A stretch of DNA of 62,155 nt, the filler included, from Globobulimina sp. (taxonomy: Eukaryota): NCBI GenBank assembly GCA_003354225.1. It is 21 parts of 21 records of this genome, joined end to end, with 100 filler letters (N's around TTAATTAATTAA, not from the genome) between each part and the next. Parts side by side here need not be neighbours in the genome. Positions count along the whole stretch, not along the records: positions 8,905 to 11,770 come from PIVH01004568.1; 20 more parts are not named here. The stretch is one strand, 5' to 3'. Positions 8,626 through 46,302 of the stretch are shown here, piece after piece. The position numbers were made by a program, and so were the translations under genes. The notes under the pieces are model-generated. The model saw only the letters and a program-made list of their open reading frames with translations. It searched no databases and had not been told where the DNA came from. Each line of letters begins with the position of its first letter. Within the stretch, counting starts at the first letter, position 1.

Positions 8626-8993
8626 TATAGGATCCATTGACATTTCGCTTTGGCATATGAACCGAGTTATTTTTTTTTGTTAGGTGTTCAACATAGCATA
8701 CAGTAGTGTTCCCGATAAGAGATACGCATATGATTAGCTAATATATATGATTAGTGCTAATATATAGCTAATATATTGATCATATATATATTACCCAGCG
8801 AAGANNNNNNNNNNNNNNNNNNNNNNNNNNNNNNNNNNNNNNNNNNNNTTAATTAATTAANNNNNNNNNNNNNNNNNNNNNNNNNNNNNNNNNNNNNNNN
8901 NNNNAGGTTCTGAAAGAAAAGGGATCGAAGACATGATTTTGCAATAAACAGTCTTTTTAAAAAAAAGTCACACTGTGCGAATGGACGCAAAAC

Positions 8994-11559
8994 ATGGTGT
9001 CCCTGTTTTAGTTTTGATATGCATTCCCATTCTTTGCGCAATTGGAAGCATTTAATTTATACACAGGCAGCCATGATGATACATTCACTATTAGCACAGC
9101 GTCATGTTGCCCATCTGGAGGAGGTGTATTTAGTAAATATAATAATGGTTCGCATGCAGATACATTCTGTCGTTGTTATGATGCTGGTTTTGTTGAACAA
9201 ACGTGCCCGTATAATGCATCAGATGCAAATGAATGGCTGTCCAGATTTGCAGGATTTAGCAGGTTCATATACAGTCAATAATGTCCGAAGATGCGCTGTA
9301 TTCAGTAGCAATGGTCAGAGTTACGTCCCTCAAAGATGTCAGAGTTTAGTTGATATATTATATGTTGCCGATTTGCGTTTATATTAATTGACCATATACA
9401 AACAACTCAGCCCGAACAATCTGTTTAAATGGAACCGGTAAATCACAATGGGATGGCACGTATTTTACAAATTCAACATCATTTTATTATGGATATCCAT
9501 TGTACCATAATTCAGACTAAAATGGTCTTACGATTCGATGGGATTATGTCGATGGGTTTGTACCACTGTGGTATTTAGTTTTGGACAATGCTTTAATTTA
9601 TGCCAGATTAAATATATTGTTTGGAGCTGTGGATGAGCAGTGGGATATTATTCTAGTTCAACAATACGCGGATGCTTTCAATCAACAAGCATGGCAAACA
9701 TGGAATTCTGGTGCTTCACAATATGAAGTTTCAACCACAACACAAGTGACAGCCGGTTCATGCACCTCTACCACGACAGACAAACCATTCACTACCACAA
9801 CAGATGAACCATTTGACGAAGCCACTCAATCAAGCAATGTGATAGATTTAGTAATTATTCTTATAGTACTTGTGATTATCATGGTTATCATTTGTTTATT
9901 GGCTCGACATAATCGACAGATTCTCAAAAAATGTAAAGACTATCAATCTGGCATTGAAGCACAAGCGAACATACAAAATAACTTAAATAAAAATCAAGAA
10001 AGTCAGAGAAATGAAACTAAAATGGATAATGTTGAAATCACGACTCAAAAATCAATGATTGAACCCAATGTATGTTGTTGACAGTAAGTTGCAAAGTATT
10101 TTATTTTATATTAAATTATAATATGTAGCCAATTTCAAAGTTATTAGATATTATAAAAGAACATCAAAAGTTCATGAAGCACCAAGAACAGTCAGTAACT
10201 GCAATAATAAATGAGAATATGTTGGAGAGCGCAAAAAACAGAGCAATAGAAACTCAAAAGGAATTATTAAACGCCATAATGAATATTAATGCAATGAGCC
10301 AATTTTTATCGAATATTATTTTAATCGAAAATTTATTCAATTTAAAGTATGCAGACAGTAAATTGGAGCAAGAAAGAGCGAGGAAACAGTATGCAAACAA
10401 TATTGATATTTATGAGAATAAACCAAAGCCTATCTGTGATTGTTCTAGTTTTGTTGAATTACTTTCCCTGTAGATTGGTTTGAAAGGATTGGTTTTGAGA
10501 TTTTGTATAATGGTTTGGATTGTTTTTATTTTAAACGCGTATAATTTGGCGTTTGTATGGGTTTGTGTGAGTATGCATAAGGGTGGATTTTATTTCAGAC
10601 GGTTACTGTTGAGAGTACTTTTAAAAATCTGAAAATCTCAAAACTGAACCCTTTGAACCAATCTACAGGGAAAGTATTATTTGCTGCCAAAACAGATATC
10701 GGTTCGTTTAAAAAATGGTTGATAAATTTAGAGAAAACATGCAAAGAAAGAGACATTGCCATCAAAGCGAGTTCAGGAGCGAAAGAAAAAAATATTGAAA
10801 GAGCATTTTATAAATCTTTTTATGTTTACGCTGTAAATCATGGCGATAACGGACATAAACAAATGAGCGATGTTCTCCGTTGTTCGTAGCTTTTGATGAT
10901 TTTGCTGCTTTATATCGATGTTTCACAGTCATTGAGGAATTGAGTAAACCCAATGGTGGTATTTTGCGATGTAAAGACAGATTCCAACCCAAGAAAATGC
11001 CATTTGGTTATAGGGATTTATTGATGTTATGTTCCATCTCTTTTGTCTGTAAATAATAAATTTTTGAATAAAAATATATACGGTACATAGTAACATTAAA
11101 TGTCCACGATCTGATATTATAGTTTGCGAGATTCAGCTCCATCACAATATATTCTATCAATATAAGAAAATCAGCCATACCATGTACAAAAAAGGTATAC
11201 TAACTATATTGTATAAATATTATATTTGTTGTTTCTGAATGTATCTGAAATAAACAATTAAAGCTCGTTTATTTGAAGAGGGTGGTAACAATTTGGCGTA
11301 TGATTATGCTGATGAATATACGCGGTGTCATGTTGGAGATAAAGTATATCACATTGTCTCTGAGGGTAAGGAGCCGGAACAACTCCTAAAGGAATGGGGT
11401 TTGGCTGAATATGCTGAGGCATTAAGTGAAGATGGATACGATGATGTTGAGGATTGGATGGGTTTATCTGTGGAGGAGTTGCAAGCAATCGGTTTCAGAA
11501 CTGGCCATGCAAAAAAATTGAAGAGAGAATTATATAAATTTCAAAATGTTTATGAGTGA
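8994..11559 (+). pseudogene. Single-pass receptor-like gene: Cys-rich ectodomain, TM, RelA/SpoT-like nucleotidyltransferase and SAM domain (frameshifted copy)
   Basis: GT-AG introns at 9314 (or 9338)-9410, 10070-10128, 10539-10598, 11026-11090 and 11195-11263. TM helix LVIILIVLVIIMVIICLLA. Synthetase-like motifs KNIERAFYK, DVLRCS, KDRF, GYRDLLIN, CEIQLHH and SHTMYKKAR. SAM motifs LKEWGLAEYAEALSEDGYD and IGFRTGHAKKL. Lesions: 1-nt indels near 9009, 9043, 9225, 10457 and 10887, and a TAA at 9518. Confidence 0.75.
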
Positions 11560-11967
11560 ATTAAAGATTTATGCACACAATACACAATGACACATAAAAT
11601 TGATTTTAATTGAAACAGCTTTCTTACAATACGTGCAGTTAAGAAATGTAGGACGAGAAAGACGAGAAAGATGAGAAAGATGAAAAAATTCAGATGAGAA
11701 AAAGATGAGAAAGACACCAACATTGAAAACATCGTGGATACGCACCACTGCAGCACCACATGGATGACTANNNNNNNNNNNNNNNNNNNNNNNNNNNNNN
11801 NNNNNNNNNNNNNNTTAATTAATTAANNNNNNNNNNNNNNNNNNNNNNNNNNNNNNNNNNNNNNNNNNNNAAAAAAAAAAACAAATTAATTGAAAATAAA
11901 AAATTACAAAATTGCAAAACAATTAATGAAAATAAGAATGTAGTCATTCATTCATATATATATTAGA

Positions 11968-14736
11968 TTACATATTACTATCTTGATCTTGTGCTTCTCT
12001 GTCATTTCGTTCTTGATAATATCTGGCAGAATGATAATAGGCATAACCAGCTTGATTTAACATAATTCCTTTCGGAAATTTATCCACTATTTCTTCATCC
12101 ACATCAGCTGCATACTGTAAGTAAAAAAATAGTGTTGGCACACTTGCATCTTTGGCTAATTCAGTGCGACAATTATTGTCTAAAAATCTTCTAAACGCAG
12201 ACAAAAATAACCATAATTGATCCATCTCATGTCTCGTAATAAATTGTTGTAAATTTGTTTTCAACCCTTCATTATTAATGGGAGTCTTATACAATTCCAT
12301 GGTGGTTTGTGGTATTTCATGCCACGTTCCCTCCTCAATCAAATACAACCTCTCCAAATATCTCCATATATTCTCCAAATGTTTCAACGATAATTGCGTA
12401 CGAATAAAGGGAGCATATTCCTGCGGATATAAATGCAAATTATCCTTCATATACGTGCCCAACGAGAACATTTCCGATGGTAAATTTACTTGTCGTTCCA
12501 GCGCAATCAACGTCTGTTCCACAGCTTGCAATGCATTGTTATACGCATCCAATGTCCGCTGTTTCTGCTGTTGAGTCCGCTCCCTCTCATCATCGCCATC
12601 CTCCTCTTGCTTCCTATCATAGCCACCTCCATCCTCCTCGCCAATATTGTCATTATTCAATGCCGCTCTTTGCTGTATATTCAACTTAACAATGGCTAAT
12701 AAACTCATTGGTGCTTTATCAAAATACTTCATTTTCTTGATCTTTTCATACTGCATATTCACTTTCGAGATCACCTGCGGAATATTAAACTGCCCCGCAA
12801 ACTCAAACTCGATCGGCGAGTCAATCACAAACTTGCGCCCTGTGATATATCTCTCCCTTAACCGCGTCTCCAACAAACGCAAGTTCAGCGTATACGGCGA
12901 AGCTTCGCCATACTTCAATTTCTGCTGCGTACATTCTTGGATAATTTCGCGAAACTCCTCCTCGTCAATGTCAACCACATCACTGGGCCGCGATATATGC
13001 GTCGAATCCAAACCTGGCTGCAAGCCAACAGTGCTGCCGTCATCATAGTCGTCCGCATCGTCCACATTCTCGCGCAATTGGTAGCATTCCCGCAATGTCT
13101 TGTTATTGGTAGTAATGTAATGATGGATCATCTTCCGAATCATTATCGACGTATCCAATTTGCCGTTGAGGCCAGTATCCATGCCATAGATCAACGGGAC
13201 ATCCACAGGGATGATCTTCCTCTTTTTCGTGGATTTCGCCACAATGGTTTTGTACGGTATTGGCTGGCAGACCTTTTTAATCTCAATAAACCTTTTAAAC
13301 TGATTTTTTCGCGCGATTCTAATTTGTTGCTCATCGTCATCATCATCCACATCGTTATTTACTTTCTTTTCATCGTCATTATTGGCGTCGGGGATGTTGA
13401 TTTTGATGCCTTTGTCCACAGTCACTGTCCCAACAGCGGCACCGCCCAACTTTTCGCCCACAGTGACCCGCGCCGCTAAATGGTTCCATCCTGACACGAA
13501 GCCGTTAAACGCATCGATCCACACTTTGGTATCACCCCAACCTTCGTTCTTACACTTTTCCATCACCCATTTACAGGAATATTTGTCCGGATCAGCCAGC
13601 ACGTCGTCTAAATTCAGCCGTTGATTCAACCGCAATTTGAGCAACTTCATCCATGTTATCATCGATGGCAAATATTTCAACGCAAACACACTGTATCCAG
13701 CTGCCTCGTCAATGGTATTCAATATGCCCCACGTCACGGGATACTTGAGTCGATTTTCTTTATTTTCCTTCAATTTCTCTTTAAAAGTCGACAAAGTTAA
13801 CACACGAAATGGTAAAAATATATTTGGTAAGTAGTTTTTGAAAAATTCGCGTCCCTCATCCGAGTTTCGATCGATTTGCTCACTAAATCGTTGATTCCAT
13901 TTCAACACAACCCGCGATTTGGATACTTTCTCGCGTACAGCACCAACCACTCTGCGTACATTGGTCGTACATGGCTTTATACATTCTTTCACCAAGAAAT
14001 CCTCAAATAACTTGCGTTGATTTGAATCCTGCAATTCCGGGCATCCTTTGTCTCCATACTTTGCTGGGAAGGCGATATACAAATTGTGTATGATTTGATG
14101 CATTAAATACACCACACTCTCAAAGGACAAATTTAATTTGGTCGCCAGCGACCGGATGCATTTCGTCATCAATTGCTTCAACCTTTTGGTCACATCTTCT
14201 TTTCGAATCAATGTAAATGTATCCGCACAGCTGGTCTGGATCTCCGATGCATGGATAAATAGAATCGCATTATTCATCCATCGCACGATCCGGACTTCCA
14301 ACTCATTCAAGCCACGCACCACATCATCACTGCCTTCAATCAACACATAGCCTCTCGGCGCCAGTTTCTCTGAGTTATATTCCGCCATTCCTTCCGTAGC
14401 TCCACTGTACGGGTTATCCGGTACAATCTTACCGTTTTTATCAATTTTGCCAATGCGTTTATTGCCGGGAGCAGCGGTATGCGACTTGGCACCGATTTTA
14501 TTCCCGATGGGAGCGCCGCATTGTTGACACTTACCACTCCCATTGGTCGCAGTACAATTACCCACAAAATAAACGTGGTCGTTAGGACAGAGCCATACGC
14601 CGTGGCCGGCCATTACTTTTAACAGAGCAGCGGACGAATCCTCCGGCATTCCGGGCAAATATTCTTTCTTCATTTCCAATGTATGGTGGAATAACTTACT
14701 AAATGGATTGGCCGGCAATGATATCACCACCGATAC
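11968..14736 (-). CDS. RNF213 (mysterin)-like C-terminal region with an RZ-type zinc finger, 5' partial
   Basis: The motif WLCPNDHVYFVGNC...GKCQQCGAPIG...H...GN matches the RZ finger of RNF213/ZNFX1. It is followed by about 800 aa of helical sequence including ALKYLPSMITW and FVSGWN, as expected for an RNF213-type C-terminal domain. Confidence 0.75.
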   Translation of the reverse strand, partial: VSVVISLPANPFSKLFHHTLEMKKEYLPGMPEDSSAALLKVMAGHGVWLCPNDHVYFVGNCTATNGSGKCQQCGAPIGNKIGAKSHTAAPGNKRIGKIDKNGKIVPDNPYSGATEGMAEYNSEKLAPRGYVLIEGSDDVVRGLNELEVRIVRWMNNAILFIHASEIQTSCADTFTLIRKEDVTKRLKQLMTKCIRSLATKLNLSFESVVYLMHQIIHNLYIAFPAKYGDKGCPELQDSNQRKLFEDFLVKECIKPCTTNVRRVVGAVREKVSKSRVVLKWNQRFSEQIDRNSDEGREFFKNYLPNIFLPFRVLTLSTFKEKLKENKENRLKYPVTWGILNTIDEAAGYSVFALKYLPSMITWMKLLKLRLNQRLNLDDVLADPDKYSCKWVMEKCKNEGWGDTKVWIDAFNGFVSGWNHLAARVTVGEKLGGAAVGTVTVDKGIKINIPDANNDDEKKVNNDVDDDDDEQQIRIARKNQFKRFIEIKKVCQPIPYKTIVAKSTKKRKIIPVDVPLIYGMDTGLNGKLDTSIMIRKMIHHYITTNNKTLRECYQLRENVDDADDYDDGSTVGLQPGLDSTHISRPSDVVDIDEEEFREIIQECTQQKLKYGEASPYTLNLRLLETRLRERYITGRKFVIDSPIEFEFAGQFNIPQVISKVNMQYEKIKKMKYFDKAPMSLLAIVKLNIQQRAALNNDNIGEEDGGGYDRKQEEDGDDERERTQQQKQRTLDAYNNALQAVEQTLIALERQVNLPSEMFSLGTYMKDNLHLYPQEYAPFIRTQLSLKHLENIWRYLERLYLIEEGTWHEIPQTTMELYKTPINNEGLKTNLQQFITRHEMDQLWLFLSAFRRFLDNNCRTELAKDASVPTLFFYLQYAADVDEEIVDKFPKGIMLNQAGYAYYHSARYYQERNDREAQDQDSNM

Positions 14737-16295: not shown

Positions 16296-17687
16296 TCACC
16301 TGTTTAGGTGTCGTAATGTTTTGCATATTGTCTTATGGACTTTCCAATGATCTTTCTGATGTCTTACAGCACAATAATATGCTTTATGACATTTTGAACA
16401 TCTAAGTTTTATTTCTTCTTTTTGACAAATTGCACAAACATTGCAACCATATTCAAATAAAACATTTGTTTGAATACAAATGCTCTCACTTTGCAACATC
16501 AACTCTTTTAAATAGTCGATACGCTGATGTTCATCTTTTGGGTATAAAATATATGCCAATTTTATTGCACATCGAACATGTTTCCTATATATGTTAAAAC
16601 ATTGAATATCTTCAATATCTCCTTTCAAATATTCAATAATTTCCATTTCATTCTCCAACAACCTCATATTTGGTTGTTTTATCAACTGTTTCATTAAAAC
16701 ATTTCTATTCAATAATATTGCTAAAATATCCTGTTTATCGCTGCAAAGCGCAGCCAACGGATATGATAATTCTAAAAATAAATAATGCGATGAATGTAAG
16801 CCTGAATCGTCCAATTCGAATATTACTTTTTTAATTAATTCCAATTGTTGATCATCAGCTCCATAATTTGATAAATCGCAATCATTGATATCTTTCCATA
16901 TTTTAGATTTAATAAAAGTTTGTTCCGATAATATCTTAGCATCCATTGTGTTTTTAATATCATCCATTCGAACGCAATAATATCCACTCTCATTATTATT
17001 ACATTTAAATCTGCGGACATCATCGATATTATTTTTACATCGCAAACATTTACAAATAAAATTCCATCCGTTTTTCAGGTACAATTGGCGATATATTCTG
17101 TCTCTGAAAGTATGCGTATAACTAAAATATGATATAAATATCTCCTCATTTTTATCAATGGTCTGTACTGCTTTCAACACAATTTTAATTTTTTTATCTT
17201 TCCGAATGGTACACCATTCCGCATTGGGTAAACAGGAGTGATTTATATGAGATACTGTATGAAATAAACCAGAACCAATAACTATATCTTGTTGGTTATG
17301 ATTTTGAATTCTTATTTTTAACCCATTCACAAATAAAATGGTGACAATGTTGATTAATAATTGTAATGAAAATGTATCTGAATTAACATTTAATTTTGAT
17401 TGATGTTGTTCTATTAATAATTGTGCCTTATCAGCAAAGAAAGATTCGTCGTTTGGACAATATAAAGTGTTGATTAATTCGATGATATCATTTGGTTTTG
17501 ATTCAATTATTTTTGATAAATGTTTTAAATCAAACGATTGTTTATCTGATGAATAATTGCAAATAAACAATGGTAATTCCGTAAGGATTACATCGCCAAT
17601 GTTGAATGTAGTGGTTGCAAATAGGCCTTTATTGTGAATGGATGAGTTACCAATTTTCACGTGACAATCCTTTGGTGAAGACATCAT
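16296..17687 (-). CDS. SET-domain lysine methyltransferase with C-terminal MYND finger (SMYD-like)
   Basis: Motifs KGLFAT, INHSCLPNA, EEIFISY, post-SET FICKCLRC, and MYND CAIC...CSKCHKAYYCAVRHQKDHWKVHKTIC. Confidence 0.9.
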   Translation of the reverse strand: MMSSPKDCHVKIGNSSIHNKGLFATTTFNIGDVILTELPLFICNYSSDKQSFDLKHLSKIIESKPNDIIELINTLYCPNDESFFADKAQLLIEQHQSKLNVNSDTFSLQLLINIVTILFVNGLKIRIQNHNQQDIVIGSGLFHTVSHINHSCLPNAEWCTIRKDKKIKIVLKAVQTIDKNEEIFISYFSYTHTFRDRIYRQLYLKNGWNFICKCLRCKNNIDDVRRFKCNNNESGYYCVRMDDIKNTMDAKILSEQTFIKSKIWKDINDCDLSNYGADDQQLELIKKVIFELDDSGLHSSHYLFLELSYPLAALCSDKQDILAILLNRNVLMKQLIKQPNMRLLENEMEIIEYLKGDIEDIQCFNIYRKHVRCAIKLAYILYPKDEHQRIDYLKELMLQSESICIQTNVLFEYGCNVCAICQKEEIKLRCSKCHKAYYCAVRHQKDHWKVHKTICKTLRHLNR

Positions 17688-18126
17688 AAATTCATAATAC
17701 TCNNNNNNNNNNNNNNNNNNNNNNNNNNNNNNNNNNNNNNNNNNNNTTAATTAATTAANNNNNNNNNNNNNNNNNNNNNNNNNNNNNNNNNNNNNNNNNN
17801 NNTAAAAAAAAAAATTAAGAGCTTTTCCGTTGAGGAAACAGAGTTTACTCAATTTTTAAACGATCCAAAGTTCGAAACCTGCAAAATATGTAATAAAACA
17901 GCAAAAAAATATGTTGTGAACGTTGATTTTGACTAAAATTAAAACTGTTACTTATATATTTTAGAATAGTTCATTTACTCTCCGCGCGAAATACAATATT
18001 GTACCGAATGCGTCTAATTGGATCAAATCCGCCCATTGATTAACTTGTTAACTTGTTAATTGTTGTACGAAAACTTAAAGTTAGTAAGTTTAGAGTTTGA
18101 TTAAAATGAGCGGGCTCTTCTGAACA

Positions 18127-44478: not shown

Positions 44479-46302
44479 GATTTGGAACAATGCGAGCAAA
44501 TGAAGCAAATGTTTACATTTGTTTGGAGATATAAATGGATATTCTTCATTCTTTTGGTGGCCACAATGGGCCATGTTATCACAAGGATGTTGTTTCCCAT
44601 TGTTATCGGGTTTGCTATCACCACATTAACCGCACATAAAGACAAAGAAATGGCGATATCCGATGTAATAATGAGCTTTTTATGTGATCATTCAATATTA
44701 AATTGTTCAAAGAAACTTGATTTATTAAACACAACGGTTTATTTAATGATTTATGTAAATATCGGACAAACAATATTTAATTTCGTACGTGGTTATTATG
44801 GCAAATTATTATCATTACAAATATCATCAAACATTGCAAATAAGTTATTCCATAACATACTATGTAATGATTTGTCATTTTTCGAATGTGATGAAAATGG
44901 GAAATCAGGCATTTTATTAAATAGATTGGGTGCAGATTGCAGTAAATTTGCCAGTTTTTGCAGTGATTTTATTCCTGGAATTATGGATAATATATTTGGA
45001 ATAACATTTGGTTTATTTTATGTTTTTTATGTTTCATTGCATCTGACATTAATAATGTTATTCTTTGTTCTCATTTCATCCATATCGTCAAGATATTTTT
45101 CAAATTATTTCGCCGCATTGGCCTCCCGCTTACAAACTATATCAGCAAATTGCACAAATATTGCAACGGAGTCAATACAAAATATAAAAACAATTAAATC
45201 ATTTTCAAGCGAATCACAACAGGAATTATTATATGCAAAAGAAATAAGTAAAAGATATGTTTCAGCCACAAATATTTCATTTTACAGAGCAATCTGTGAA
45301 GGAATTGTGACCGTTTTAACATTTATATCGATTGGTTGTGTCATATTGTATGCATCGCAAATGTATTTGCATAAACACATCAATTCCGGAGATATGGTAT
45401 CTTTTATAATTTCCAGTATTCAAATCTCCAAATTTATGCAAAGAGTGCTTGGCAAATATGGTGATTTAATGACTTGTTTGGGCGCAACAAAGAGAATATT
45501 CATTCTAATGAATAAAGAAAGAAATATTTCAGCAATTGGTGGAGGTGGAGATATAGAAAGAAATGAGGAATTTAGAGGGAAAATAGAATTTAAAAACGTT
45601 TGTTTTTGTTATCCAGACAGAAACATACAAATTGTAAATAATTTATCCTTTTGCATAAACGGAGGGGAAATGATTGGCATTGTTGGCGAATCGGGCTGCG
45701 GCAAATCGACGATCATAAATTTATTAATGCGATTTTATGATCCAAGCTCAGGGAATATATTTATTGATGATATTAATTTAAAATCTTATAATTTAATCAA
45801 ATTACATCGGAATAATATTGGTTACGTCATAAAATGGAACATTTGCTATGGAGCAGATATTAATGACCAACAAATGATTGCGGCAGCAAAAAAAGCAGAA
45901 TGTTATTCATTTATAATGCAATTAAAAAACGGATTTGATACAATTTGCGGCGAACGAGGTAGTCTGCAATCTGGCGGACAAAAACAACGAATCGCCATTG
46001 CGAGAGCCATTTATAATAATCCACACATTCTCATTTTTGATGAAGCATCGTCGGCATTGGATGCTAAAAATGAACATGTGATATACTCAAATTTCTTGTG
46101 TAATAATGACAACCAGAATGAAAATAAAAAAAAAACAATTATTATTATTGCCCATAGACTGAGTACAATTAAGAATTGTGATAAAATATTTGTTATTAAA
46201 AATAACAACATGGTACAAAATGGTACACACAAACAACTGAAAGAAATTAAGGATGGAGAATATTTTAAATTGCTACAAAAACAAATGTTTACTGTTTTGT
46301 AA
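44479..46302 (+). CDS. ABC transporter subfamily B half-transporter with a degenerate nucleotide-binding domain
   Basis: TM domain, Walker A GESGCGKST, signature QSGGQKQR, Walker B ILIFDEASSALD and IAHRLST. The Q-loop segment is missing (IGYV-IKWNI). Confidence 0.9.
   Translation, partial: DLEQCEQMKQMFTFVWRYKWIFFILLVATMGHVITRMLFPIVIGFAITTLTAHKDKEMAISDVIMSFLCDHSILNCSKKLDLLNTTVYLMIYVNIGQTIFNFVRGYYGKLLSLQISSNIANKLFHNILCNDLSFFECDENGKSGILLNRLGADCSKFASFCSDFIPGIMDNIFGITFGLFYVFYVSLHLTLIMLFFVLISSISSRYFSNYFAALASRLQTISANCTNIATESIQNIKTIKSFSSESQQELLYAKEISKRYVSATNISFYRAICEGIVTVLTFISIGCVILYASQMYLHKHINSGDMVSFIISSIQISKFMQRVLGKYGDLMTCLGATKRIFILMNKERNISAIGGGGDIERNEEFRGKIEFKNVCFCYPDRNIQIVNNLSFCINGGEMIGIVGESGCGKSTIINLLMRFYDPSSGNIFIDDINLKSYNLIKLHRNNIGYVIKWNICYGADINDQQMIAAAKKAECYSFIMQLKNGFDTICGERGSLQSGGQKQRIAIARAIYNNPHILIFDEASSALDAKNEHVIYSNFLCNNDNQNENKKKTIIIIAHRLSTIKNCDKIFVIKNNNMVQNGTHKQLKEIKDGEYFKLLQKQMFTVL

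Follow-up and report, generated by a model that had tools for sequence, protein, structure and literature searches.

The window analysed here is a 62,155-nt stretch of DNA from Globobulimina sp., and the contig at 8905-11770 within it holds, on the + strand, the whole of one split gene that is probably a decayed membrane-receptor copy of a foraminiferal protein family in which a helical region is followed by a synthetase domain of the RelA/SpoT homologue (RSH) type and a SAM domain. Read from the sequence, the predicted order of one gene largely holds, with a hydrophobic N-terminus, a Cys-rich ectodomain, a Thr stalk, a transmembrane helix, the helical region, the RelA/SpoT-type synthetase domain and the SAM domain. 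The copy has three frameshifts, an in-frame stop codon and a miniature inverted-repeat transposable element (MITE) in a coding exon, and is most probably a recent pseudogene; the architecture and fold of the family to which it belongs are very likely as given here. As a gene the locus, being a dead copy, is of little interest, it is the family that is worth experimental follow-up.

The + strand of the contig carries short open frames only, as the original prediction had noted, and of the 34 open reading frames (ORFs) of at least 200 aa in the window, which reach 988 aa under the standard code, none lies in this contig. When five foraminiferal homologues were compared with it by tblastn the matches fell into consecutive pieces at 10132-10464, 10674-10886, 10868-11026 and 11092-11544, with the synthetase/SAM group of matches at E 1e-50 to 1e-68. 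The helical region is 47-50% identical to four homologues and 41% identical to P0010 over a longer stretch. Four GT-AG introns fit both the frame and the homologues (Table 1), where five of 59-97 nt had been proposed; the fifth proved to be the 217-nt MITE, and the introns are labelled 1, 2, 4 and 5. The pieces sum to a conceptual product of 696 residues and not to the expected 740 or so. All of the motifs quoted for the cytoplasmic part were located, KNIERAFYK at 10788-10814, DVLRCS at 10869-10886, KDRF at 10973-10984, GYRDLL (followed by IN across intron 4) at 11006-11023, CEIQLHH at 11125-11145 and SHTMY at 11173-11187.

The reads were also available as Logan contigs of run X1, a re-assembly of what is probably the source sample of the window assembly. 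Among these contigs one from a paralogue departs from the window at exactly 11025 and continues ..LLINIYCPNCKIVCEIQ without intron 4, which fixes the donor at 11025/11026. Both run X1 (depth 8.5) and run X2 (depth 40.7) show the paralogue over the stretch 11025-11122, where 28 other letters stand in for the next exon's first 31 nt and read ..GYRDLLINIYCPNCKIVCEIQ, and it is either an intron-less paralogue or the spliced transcript of one.

The element at 10460-10676 is a high-copy MITE inserted at a TA of the coding exon, an identity that follows from its inverted ends, its TA ends, the restoration of frame, the high depth and the presence of other flanks. Its 45-nt terminal inverted repeats are 87% complementary and there is a TA at each end, so that it consists of a core of 213 nt (10462-10674) and a TA duplication; as single-stranded DNA it forms a hairpin (z -8.6). 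Conceptual removal of 215 nt, the core and one TA, joins frame 1 to frame 0 (..SSFVELLFAAKTD..) and gives the length found in the homologues, in all five of which the protein is uninterrupted from 10464 to about 10674 (..SFV.L to.F.AK..; tblastn). The stretch 10599-10670 had been taken for an exon, it is not coding because all five homologues run straight across with no counterpart to it. Whereas the flanks have depths of 11.6 and 30.8, contig depths over the element add up to 552-1957, an excess of about 50- to 170-fold, and other contigs of re-assembled reads join or leave it at 10458-10461 and 10677, whilst no second copy occurs within the window. We take it to be Stowaway-like (Tc1/mariner-type). 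It is like such MITEs in its 217 non-coding nt, 45-nt terminal inverted repeats, TA ends and high copy number, and unlike them in that no autonomous partner has been identified for it and the window holds one copy only. The locus exemplifies MITE insertion at a TA of a coding exon with the frame preserved upon conceptual excision. Removal of the element by canonical splicing was considered and rejected, as no GT-AG or GC-AG pair excises exactly 215 nt.

Outside the MITE the gene is broken by three frameshifts and by a TAA in frame at 9518-9520, and none of the lesions lies in a long homopolymer. The original prediction had recognised a disrupted copy with a few 1-nt indels; the frameshifts bear this out, but the TAA and the MITE insertion had been missed. 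The Logan contigs agree with the window over 8994-10489 with 0 differences; over 10649-11770 they show 0 substitutions and differ only by 11 extra nt at 11691, a difference in repeat length 3' of the gene, and synthetase part 1 has no differing letters in Logan record 8. The reproduction of the lesions excludes an artefact of the assembler, and since ORFs as long as 988 aa stand open on other contigs of the window the breaks are local and do not reflect a general assembly fault. No full-length product is to be expected, as the frameshifts, the TAA and the MITE destroy the frame, and the copy is almost certainly without function. All nine of the positions that are invariant or at least 90% conserved in the family (D, R, S, F, K, G, E, Q and H of profile A3, described below) are kept in this copy, and decay was therefore probably recent. 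Reassignment of the stop codon was rejected as an explanation of the TAA because ORFs of up to 988 aa in the same window are open under the standard code and the shifts would persist; a short GC-AG intron was rejected for frameshift 1, as it would be about 30 nt and in the wrong frame when inspected by eye.

Several points weigh against so firm a picture of the locus. The re-assembly probably derives from the same read set and is not an independent sample, no re-assembled contig bridges the MITE and the flank depths are unequal, so that it is the deposited assembly, together with homology, that links the two halves. Uncertainty also attaches to the true 5' end, because the first codons sit in a high-copy repeat. 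It is conceivable, if quite unlikely, that the gene is intact in the organism, with the shifts, the stop or the join being artefactual or the MITE being spliced out via cryptic sites. In-frame cryptic GT..AG pairs do lie around the element (for example 10453/10598, 146 nt), and the retention of every conserved residue, the probable sharing of reads by the two assemblies and the unbridged MITE would all fit an intact gene. However, the cryptic pairs would delete or add residues and an exact 215-nt excision is impossible by canonical splicing, four independent frame-breaking lesions lie outside the MITE, all are reproduced without difference in the re-assembly, and contigs of the same assembly carry ORFs of at least 900 aa. 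That the half with the ectodomain and transmembrane helix and the half with the synthetase and SAM domains are two loci mis-joined via a collapsed high-copy MITE is hardly credible. The depths of 11.6 and 30.8 and the unitigs that end about 30 nt inside either end of the element would be expected of such a join, but the transmembrane helix and 111 residues of the module's helical region stand on the one unbroken contig 8994-10489, as anticipated by the claim that the two parts are joined, the flanks meet in frame at neighbouring residues of the family alignment, and P0016 and P0015 (below) have the same joined order in single transcripts. A decayed copy of one gene is preferred to both. The depth of 11.6 over 8994-10489 and 30.8 over 10649-11770 may also mean that the synthetase-SAM half has 2-3 near-identical copies, or simply that coverage is uneven.

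The synthetase domain is best filed as a divergent member of the RSH superfamily that lies outside the curated boundary of Pfam, because fold, profile and transitivity agree. For the fold an AlphaFold2 model was made of P0002, a homologue 59-64% identical to the window exons, from 146 aligned sequences, with a predicted local distance difference test score (pLDDT) of 92.3 and a predicted template modelling score (pTM) of 0.84. All 28 of the Foldseek matches listed are of Rel/RelA/SpoT/SAS/CapRel/FaRel/Tas1 type, the best being 7oiw_A (E 4.3e-4), and VIA-align superposes P0002 residues 144-323 on Bacillus subtilis SAS2, a small alarmone synthetase (SAS; 6fgk_A), with Z 12.4 and a root-mean-square deviation (rmsd) of 3.7 A over 159/184 residues. 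The helical region forms helices at residues 27-126 of the model, and residues 27-143 are barely covered by the matches, with RelSeq (1vj7) starting from residue 81 and CapRel from residue 53. Profile A3, built from 26 diverse and mostly synthetase-only members, matches YwaC/SAS2 among PDB sequences at E 7.3e-6, in an alignment that pairs TDvLR with HDIAGVR, KDRF with KDYI, GYRD with GYRS, EIQLH with EIQIRT and H..Y with HKIY; it matches Tas1 at E 0.0041 over K..ERA..K...Y.GD....D..R. Transitivity comes from distant proteins that the family profile reaches with E values between 1e-14 and 1e-17; in these Pfam RelA_SpoT falls on the same stretch. The basic ATP-phosphate motif, the Asp, GY, ExQ and H..Y are all present in the window copy, and each has a role in catalysis by RelSeq and the SAS, where the Asp and Glu bind Mg.

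Against this must be set the following. None of nine pieces from the window matched Pfam RelA_SpoT (PF04607) at E<=5, exon fragments being a weak test, and in the family 15/158 proteins matched at E<=0.01 with 1/158 above the 27-bit cut-off. The close homologues reach 16.8-22.1 bits and the sole relative above the cut-off is P0130 with 33.6 bits, so that the RelA/SpoT assignment of the original prediction is supported for the family by fold and profile but not by the Pfam threshold. Full-length profiles found no significant RSH match in the PDB, A1 giving only ORC3 at E 0.6 and A2 giving SaSAS at 0.18 and Tas1 at 0.19. The modelled protein is a homologue and not the window product. Lastly, GYRDLL stands in place of GY.S.H, without its His, and EIQLHH in place of EIQIRT, without its RT, and because these are residues of the acceptor side the acceptor, or even activity, may differ. 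Other libraries gave partial signals, with P0118 matching TIGR00691 spoT_relA at E 6.2e-8 and P0135 matching YjbM at E 1.9e-5, both far under the full-length cut-offs, and with weak partial matches only for nine family members in NCBIfam/PADLOC (PDC-S33, E 6.5e-5 to 5e-3).

The terminal SAM domain is clear. Over 11254-11556 of the window SAM_1 (PF00536) scores 28.4 bits against a cut-off of 23 (E 2.2e-6) and SAM_2 (PF07647) 23.3 bits against a cut-off of 20.5, and residues 342-406 of the P0002 model adopt the five-helix fold of the EphA6/Caskin1 SAM domains (Z 11.5, rmsd 1.1 A). Profile A2 matches the SAM domain of Caskin-1 at E 4.8e-6 and, weakly, that of SARM1 at E 0.02.

The relatives of the window copy are numerous. 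With the exon piece 10581-10886 as query, 11 proteins were found at E<=0.001 among 93 candidates, with 55-68% identity, one of the 11 being from an Ammonia sp. transcriptome. A profile built from nine homologues retrieved 553 proteins at E<=1e-3; 144 of these reach <=1e-10 and 87 reach <=1e-30. The sources of 30 members were looked up, nine being from Nonionella stella, three from Elphidium margaritaceum, one from Bolivina argentea, one, a distant member, from Guillardia theta and 16 having no taxon. The constant part of the family is the helical region and synthetase-like domain, usually with a SAM domain, and in Pfam scans it is fused to WW, UBA, ubiquitin (once with Hint), MATH with SAM, SPRY, Kelch, C1/ZZ and TLDc domains, as well as to galectin, AbfB, C-type-lectin-like, 14-3-3 and kinesin with EF-hand partners. 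Three of 158 proteins (P0016, P0015 and P0012) have a single hydrophobic helix just before the module, P0012 looking incomplete at its N-terminus. P0016, of 857 aa, has a signal peptide at 6-28, a Cys-rich ectodomain with an LNR-like motif, a Thr stalk, a transmembrane helix at 284-303, a WW domain and the module at 321-850; P0015, of 668 aa, has the same order with the helix at 102-126 and the module at 135-660. Both are from the Nonionella stella transcriptome, and as they are transcripts the joined architecture exists intact and expressed, in line with the intact paralogues that had been predicted, with ectodomains unrelated to that of the window. Three outcomes had been named in advance as counting against a receptor-synthetase, namely no fold match, separate genes and no joined homologue, and on examination none of the three was borne out.

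A number of other members bear on how the module is used. P0048, P0050, P0051, P0052 and P0065 combine it with a choline-transporter-like multi-pass domain (Choline_transpo, E 9e-12 to 2e-22), the cluster of P0051 including P0160 of identical length from Elphidium margaritaceum, and to judge from these domain matches the fusions are a second, transporter-type membrane form of the module. In Nonionella stella P0034, P0058, P0030 and P0014 show a kinesin motor with EF-hands and the module, ubiquitin with a Hint/intein-like domain and the module, and the module with TLDc. P0130, a protein of 594 aa on a metagenome contig of 6667 nt, carries two tandem KDRF..GYRD..E.QLH synthetase domains and may mark the superfamily branch from which the foraminiferal domain derives.

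The extracellular part of the window gene is an orphan. The ATG at 8981 opens MDAKHGVPVLVLICIPILCA without an internal shift, in place of the start at 8994 (MVSLF) given in the original prediction, which needs one extra indel. Summed contig depth is 698 over 8905-9000 compared with 11.6 in the unique contig from 8994, with record 1 at 396.6, and no second copy of the 8905-9001 repeat is present in the window. The best 14-residue Kyte-Doolittle window of the N-terminus is 2.96 (PVLVLICIPILCAI). Across the ectodomain pieces there are 10 Cys and 4 NxS/T sites, Ser+Thr make up 49% of the stalk, and the transmembrane helix LVIILIVLVIIMVIICLLA has a mean Kyte-Doolittle value of 3.87 and is followed by RHNRQILKK. 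Of the features of a type I topology, the transmembrane helix with its basic cytoplasmic side is clear; the signal peptide is putative, as the hydrophobic N-terminus sits at the edge of a repeat with a frameshift directly after it. The ectodomain has no Pfam family, and it showed no similarity to the ectodomains of P0016, P0015 and P0012 (tblastn, best E 0.27). Neither the 45 candidates among longer proteins nor the 3 of similar length included a relative of it, and a search with a 75-aa stretch of it returned unrelated phage clusters only.

The ancestral product would have been a type-I single-pass membrane protein with a signal peptide, an orphan Cys-rich and N-glycosylated ectodomain, a Thr-rich stalk and a transmembrane helix, and its cytoplasmic module of helical region, divergent RSH synthetase domain and SAM domain is in foraminifera a portable output unit, placed behind varied input or targeting domains, the membrane-receptor form being one of several architectures. 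In the likeliest mechanism the synthetase would bind ATP-Mg by way of its conserved motifs (K..K...R...K, D and ExQ) and pass pyrophosphate on to a purine nucleotide at its 3'-OH, so that the product would resemble (p)ppGpp or (p)ppApp; candidate acceptors are GDP/GTP, adenine nucleotides and RNA ends. SAM domains are known to self-associate as a regulatory step, and such self-association together with the N-terminal sensor would set the timing and place of synthesis. Chances are about even that the domain has pyrophosphokinase chemistry. A wider suggestion can be made only tentatively, that foraminifera possess cytoplasmic signalling by 3'-pyrophosphorylated nucleotides in which the synthetases are wired to receptors, choline-transporter-like proteins, motors, lectins and ubiquitin-system domains via the helical-synthetase-SAM module. 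If it is true, receptor-type alarmone synthetases would be the eukaryotic counterpart of receptor cyclases and the locus a dead member of them.

The same fold could, by analogy, serve a death or immunity effector, in which SAM clustering would bring about ATP depletion by (p)ppApp, as with Tas1, or pyrophosphorylation of tRNA 3' ends, as with CapRel and FaRel2, with the varied N-terminal domains acting as sensors in the manner of SARM1 or of fungal NOD-like receptors (NLRs). This is rather unlikely, though several observations speak for it. The first two motifs align best with Tas1 (the match at E 0.0041), CapRel, FaRel2 and Tas1 are among the fold matches, the SAM domain of SARM1 is a weak sequence match, and a constant enzyme and SAM domain with variable partners (MATH, SPRY, Kelch, lectins, ubiquitin, UBA, C1/ZZ) is reminiscent of how immune proteins are built; one study also places RelA_SpoT among the N-terminal effector domains of fungal NLRs (10.1101/2022.03.16.484565). 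However, the best sequence and fold matches are to the housekeeping SAS, YwaC/SAS2 (E 7e-6, Z 12.4), the partners seen include none of antitoxin-like or NLR type, and, given how commonly these foraminiferal proteins have their domains shuffled, variable partners need not point to immunity. That the domain is a pseudoenzyme, which binds nucleotides or acts as a scaffold without catalysis, is very unlikely. Whilst the acceptor-side residues unlike those of classical RSH proteins (GYRDLL for GY.S.H, EIQLHH for EIQIRT) and the subthreshold Pfam scores would suit it, the counterparts of the catalytic SAS2 residues Asp and Glu, and the K..K...R...K motif, are invariant or at least 90% conserved across 26 diverse members, which argues for retained chemistry.

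Signalling of the (p)ppGpp type is regarded as bacterial and plastid biology. For the eukaryotic cytoplasm Atkinson et al. 2011 (PMC3153485) has on record only scattered divergent synthetases and the Mesh1 hydrolase, the former including the synthetase-only RSHs termed divRel, from Dictyostelium, three fungi (Aspergillus and Gibberella among them) and two diatoms. divRel is like the foraminiferal domain in being a eukaryotic synthetase-only RSH without an obvious partner hydrolase, but PMC3153485 lists no foraminifera and its main text lacks the word 'transmembrane', whereas the foraminiferal domain belongs to a large multi-architecture family with SAM domains that includes membrane receptors. 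The SAS (RelP/YwaC/SAS2 and RelQ/SAS1; 6fgk, 5ded) are the nearest in fold (Z 12.4 over 159 residues) and profile (E 7.3e-6). Unlike them the foraminiferal domain is eukaryotic, cytoplasmic and set between a helical region of about 120 residues and a SAM domain, it has D..R spacing for D....R, GYRDLL and EIQLHH for GY.S.H and EIQIRT, and it scores under the Pfam cut-off. Tas1 (the type VI (p)ppApp synthetase toxin, 6ox6) and the toxic SAS CapRel and FaRel2 share the RSH fold, and the N-terminal motifs align with Tas1, but the foraminiferal module has no secretion, immunity or antitoxin context and its overall match to them is weaker than to SAS2. Fungal NLRs are, according to the NLR study cited above (10.1101/2022.03.16.484565), a further case of a eukaryotic RSH-like domain as a module of multi-domain signalling proteins, PF04607 RelA_SpoT being listed among their effector domains although no cluster there matched the RelA_SpoT profile with sufficient coverage; the foraminiferal partners differ in being SAM and receptor or adaptor domains rather than NACHT/NB-ARC. 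Two likenesses are by analogy only. Receptor guanylyl cyclases likewise join a single-pass receptor to a cytoplasmic nucleotide-converting domain, with an unrelated catalytic fold and chemistry, and SARM1 has a SAM domain beside a nucleotide enzyme, with an unrelated catalytic fold and chemistry and no homology outside SAM.

The combination of a membrane receptor, an RSH-fold synthetase and a SAM domain seems not to have been described. No description of such an architecture emerged from a literature search on RelA/SpoT and alarmone synthetases in foraminifera, Rhizaria and protists or in combination with SAM, most subscription journals lying outside the search so that absence is unproven; to this extent the result agrees with the original prediction, in which no described receptor of this kind was known. 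The importance of the family is that in at least four named genera of foraminifera the synthetase fold makes up a large family that is expressed, where it is a standard output module together with SAM, and that it makes testable whether eukaryotes make or use alarmone-like nucleotides outside organelles. Intact cDNAs, such as those of P0002 and P0016, are suited to expression and assay.

Table 1. Parts of the disrupted gene and associated features, in positions of the window
Feature	Position	Strand	Support
High-copy 5'-terminal repeat of the contig, reaching both candidate ATGs (8981, 8994)	8905-9001		depth
Putative start and signal-peptide-like segment MDAKHGVPVLVLICIPILCAI, frame 2; stop in frame at 9053-9055	8981-9043	+	
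Frameshift 1, frame 2 to frame 0; no GT-AG pair in the stretch	9018-9052	+	Logan record 3: 0 differences
Cys-rich ectodomain, first exon; frame 0 to ~9236, then frame 1	9045-9343	+	
Frameshift 2 (..SDANE / GCPDLQD..)	near 9236	+	
Intron 1, GT..AG, 67 nt, phase 1; alternative donor 9338 (73 nt)	9344-9410	+	
Exon with rest of ectodomain, stalk, transmembrane helix and basic cytoplasmic tail	9411-10069	+	
In-frame TAA	9518-9520	+	
Thr-rich stalk	about 9728-9838	+	
Transmembrane helix	9848-9904	+	
Intron 2, GT..AG, 59 nt, phase 0; sole in-frame pair	10070-10128	+	
Helical N-terminal region of the conserved module (PISKLLDIIKEHQKF...SSFVEL)	10129-10461	+	tblastn
217-nt MITE inside coding exon	10460-10676		inverted ends, TA, depth
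Synthetase part 1, frame 0, AKEKNIERAFYK and SDVLRCS	10677-10886	+	58-63% identity to 5 homologues
Frameshift 3, directly after DVLRCS	about 10884-10887	+	
Synthetase part 2, frame 2, VAFDDF..CKDRF..FGYRDLL	10886-11025	+	59-65% identity
Intron 4, GT..AG, 65 nt, phase 2	11026-11090	+	
Synthetase part 3, INIKCP..VCEIQLHH..SHTMYKK	11091-11194	+	tblastn, motifs
Intron 5, GT..AG, 69 nt, phase 1; homologues continuous YKK-ARLFE across	11195-11263	+	
Last exon, ARLFEE..., SAM about 11380-11532, stop TGA 11557-11559	11264-11559	+	

The window is composed of 21 contigs of 2862-2869 nt that are ordered by length and separated by 100-nt spacers (N..TTAATTAATTAA..N), and because the contigs are unrelated their adjacency has no genomic meaning. 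Five further window ORFs, 433-954 aa long, matched no Pfam family at E<=1e-5. Intact ORFs on other contigs include one with an RZ-type zinc finger at 11971-14736 (- strand, E 2.8e-14), one for a SET and MYND protein at 16299-17702 (- strand) and one for a half-size ABC transporter (ABC_membrane with ABC_tran) at 44479-46299 (+ strand). On the contig of the gene itself, GA-rich tandem repeats (GAGAAAGATGAGAAAG..) occupy 11640-11710, 3' of the coding region.

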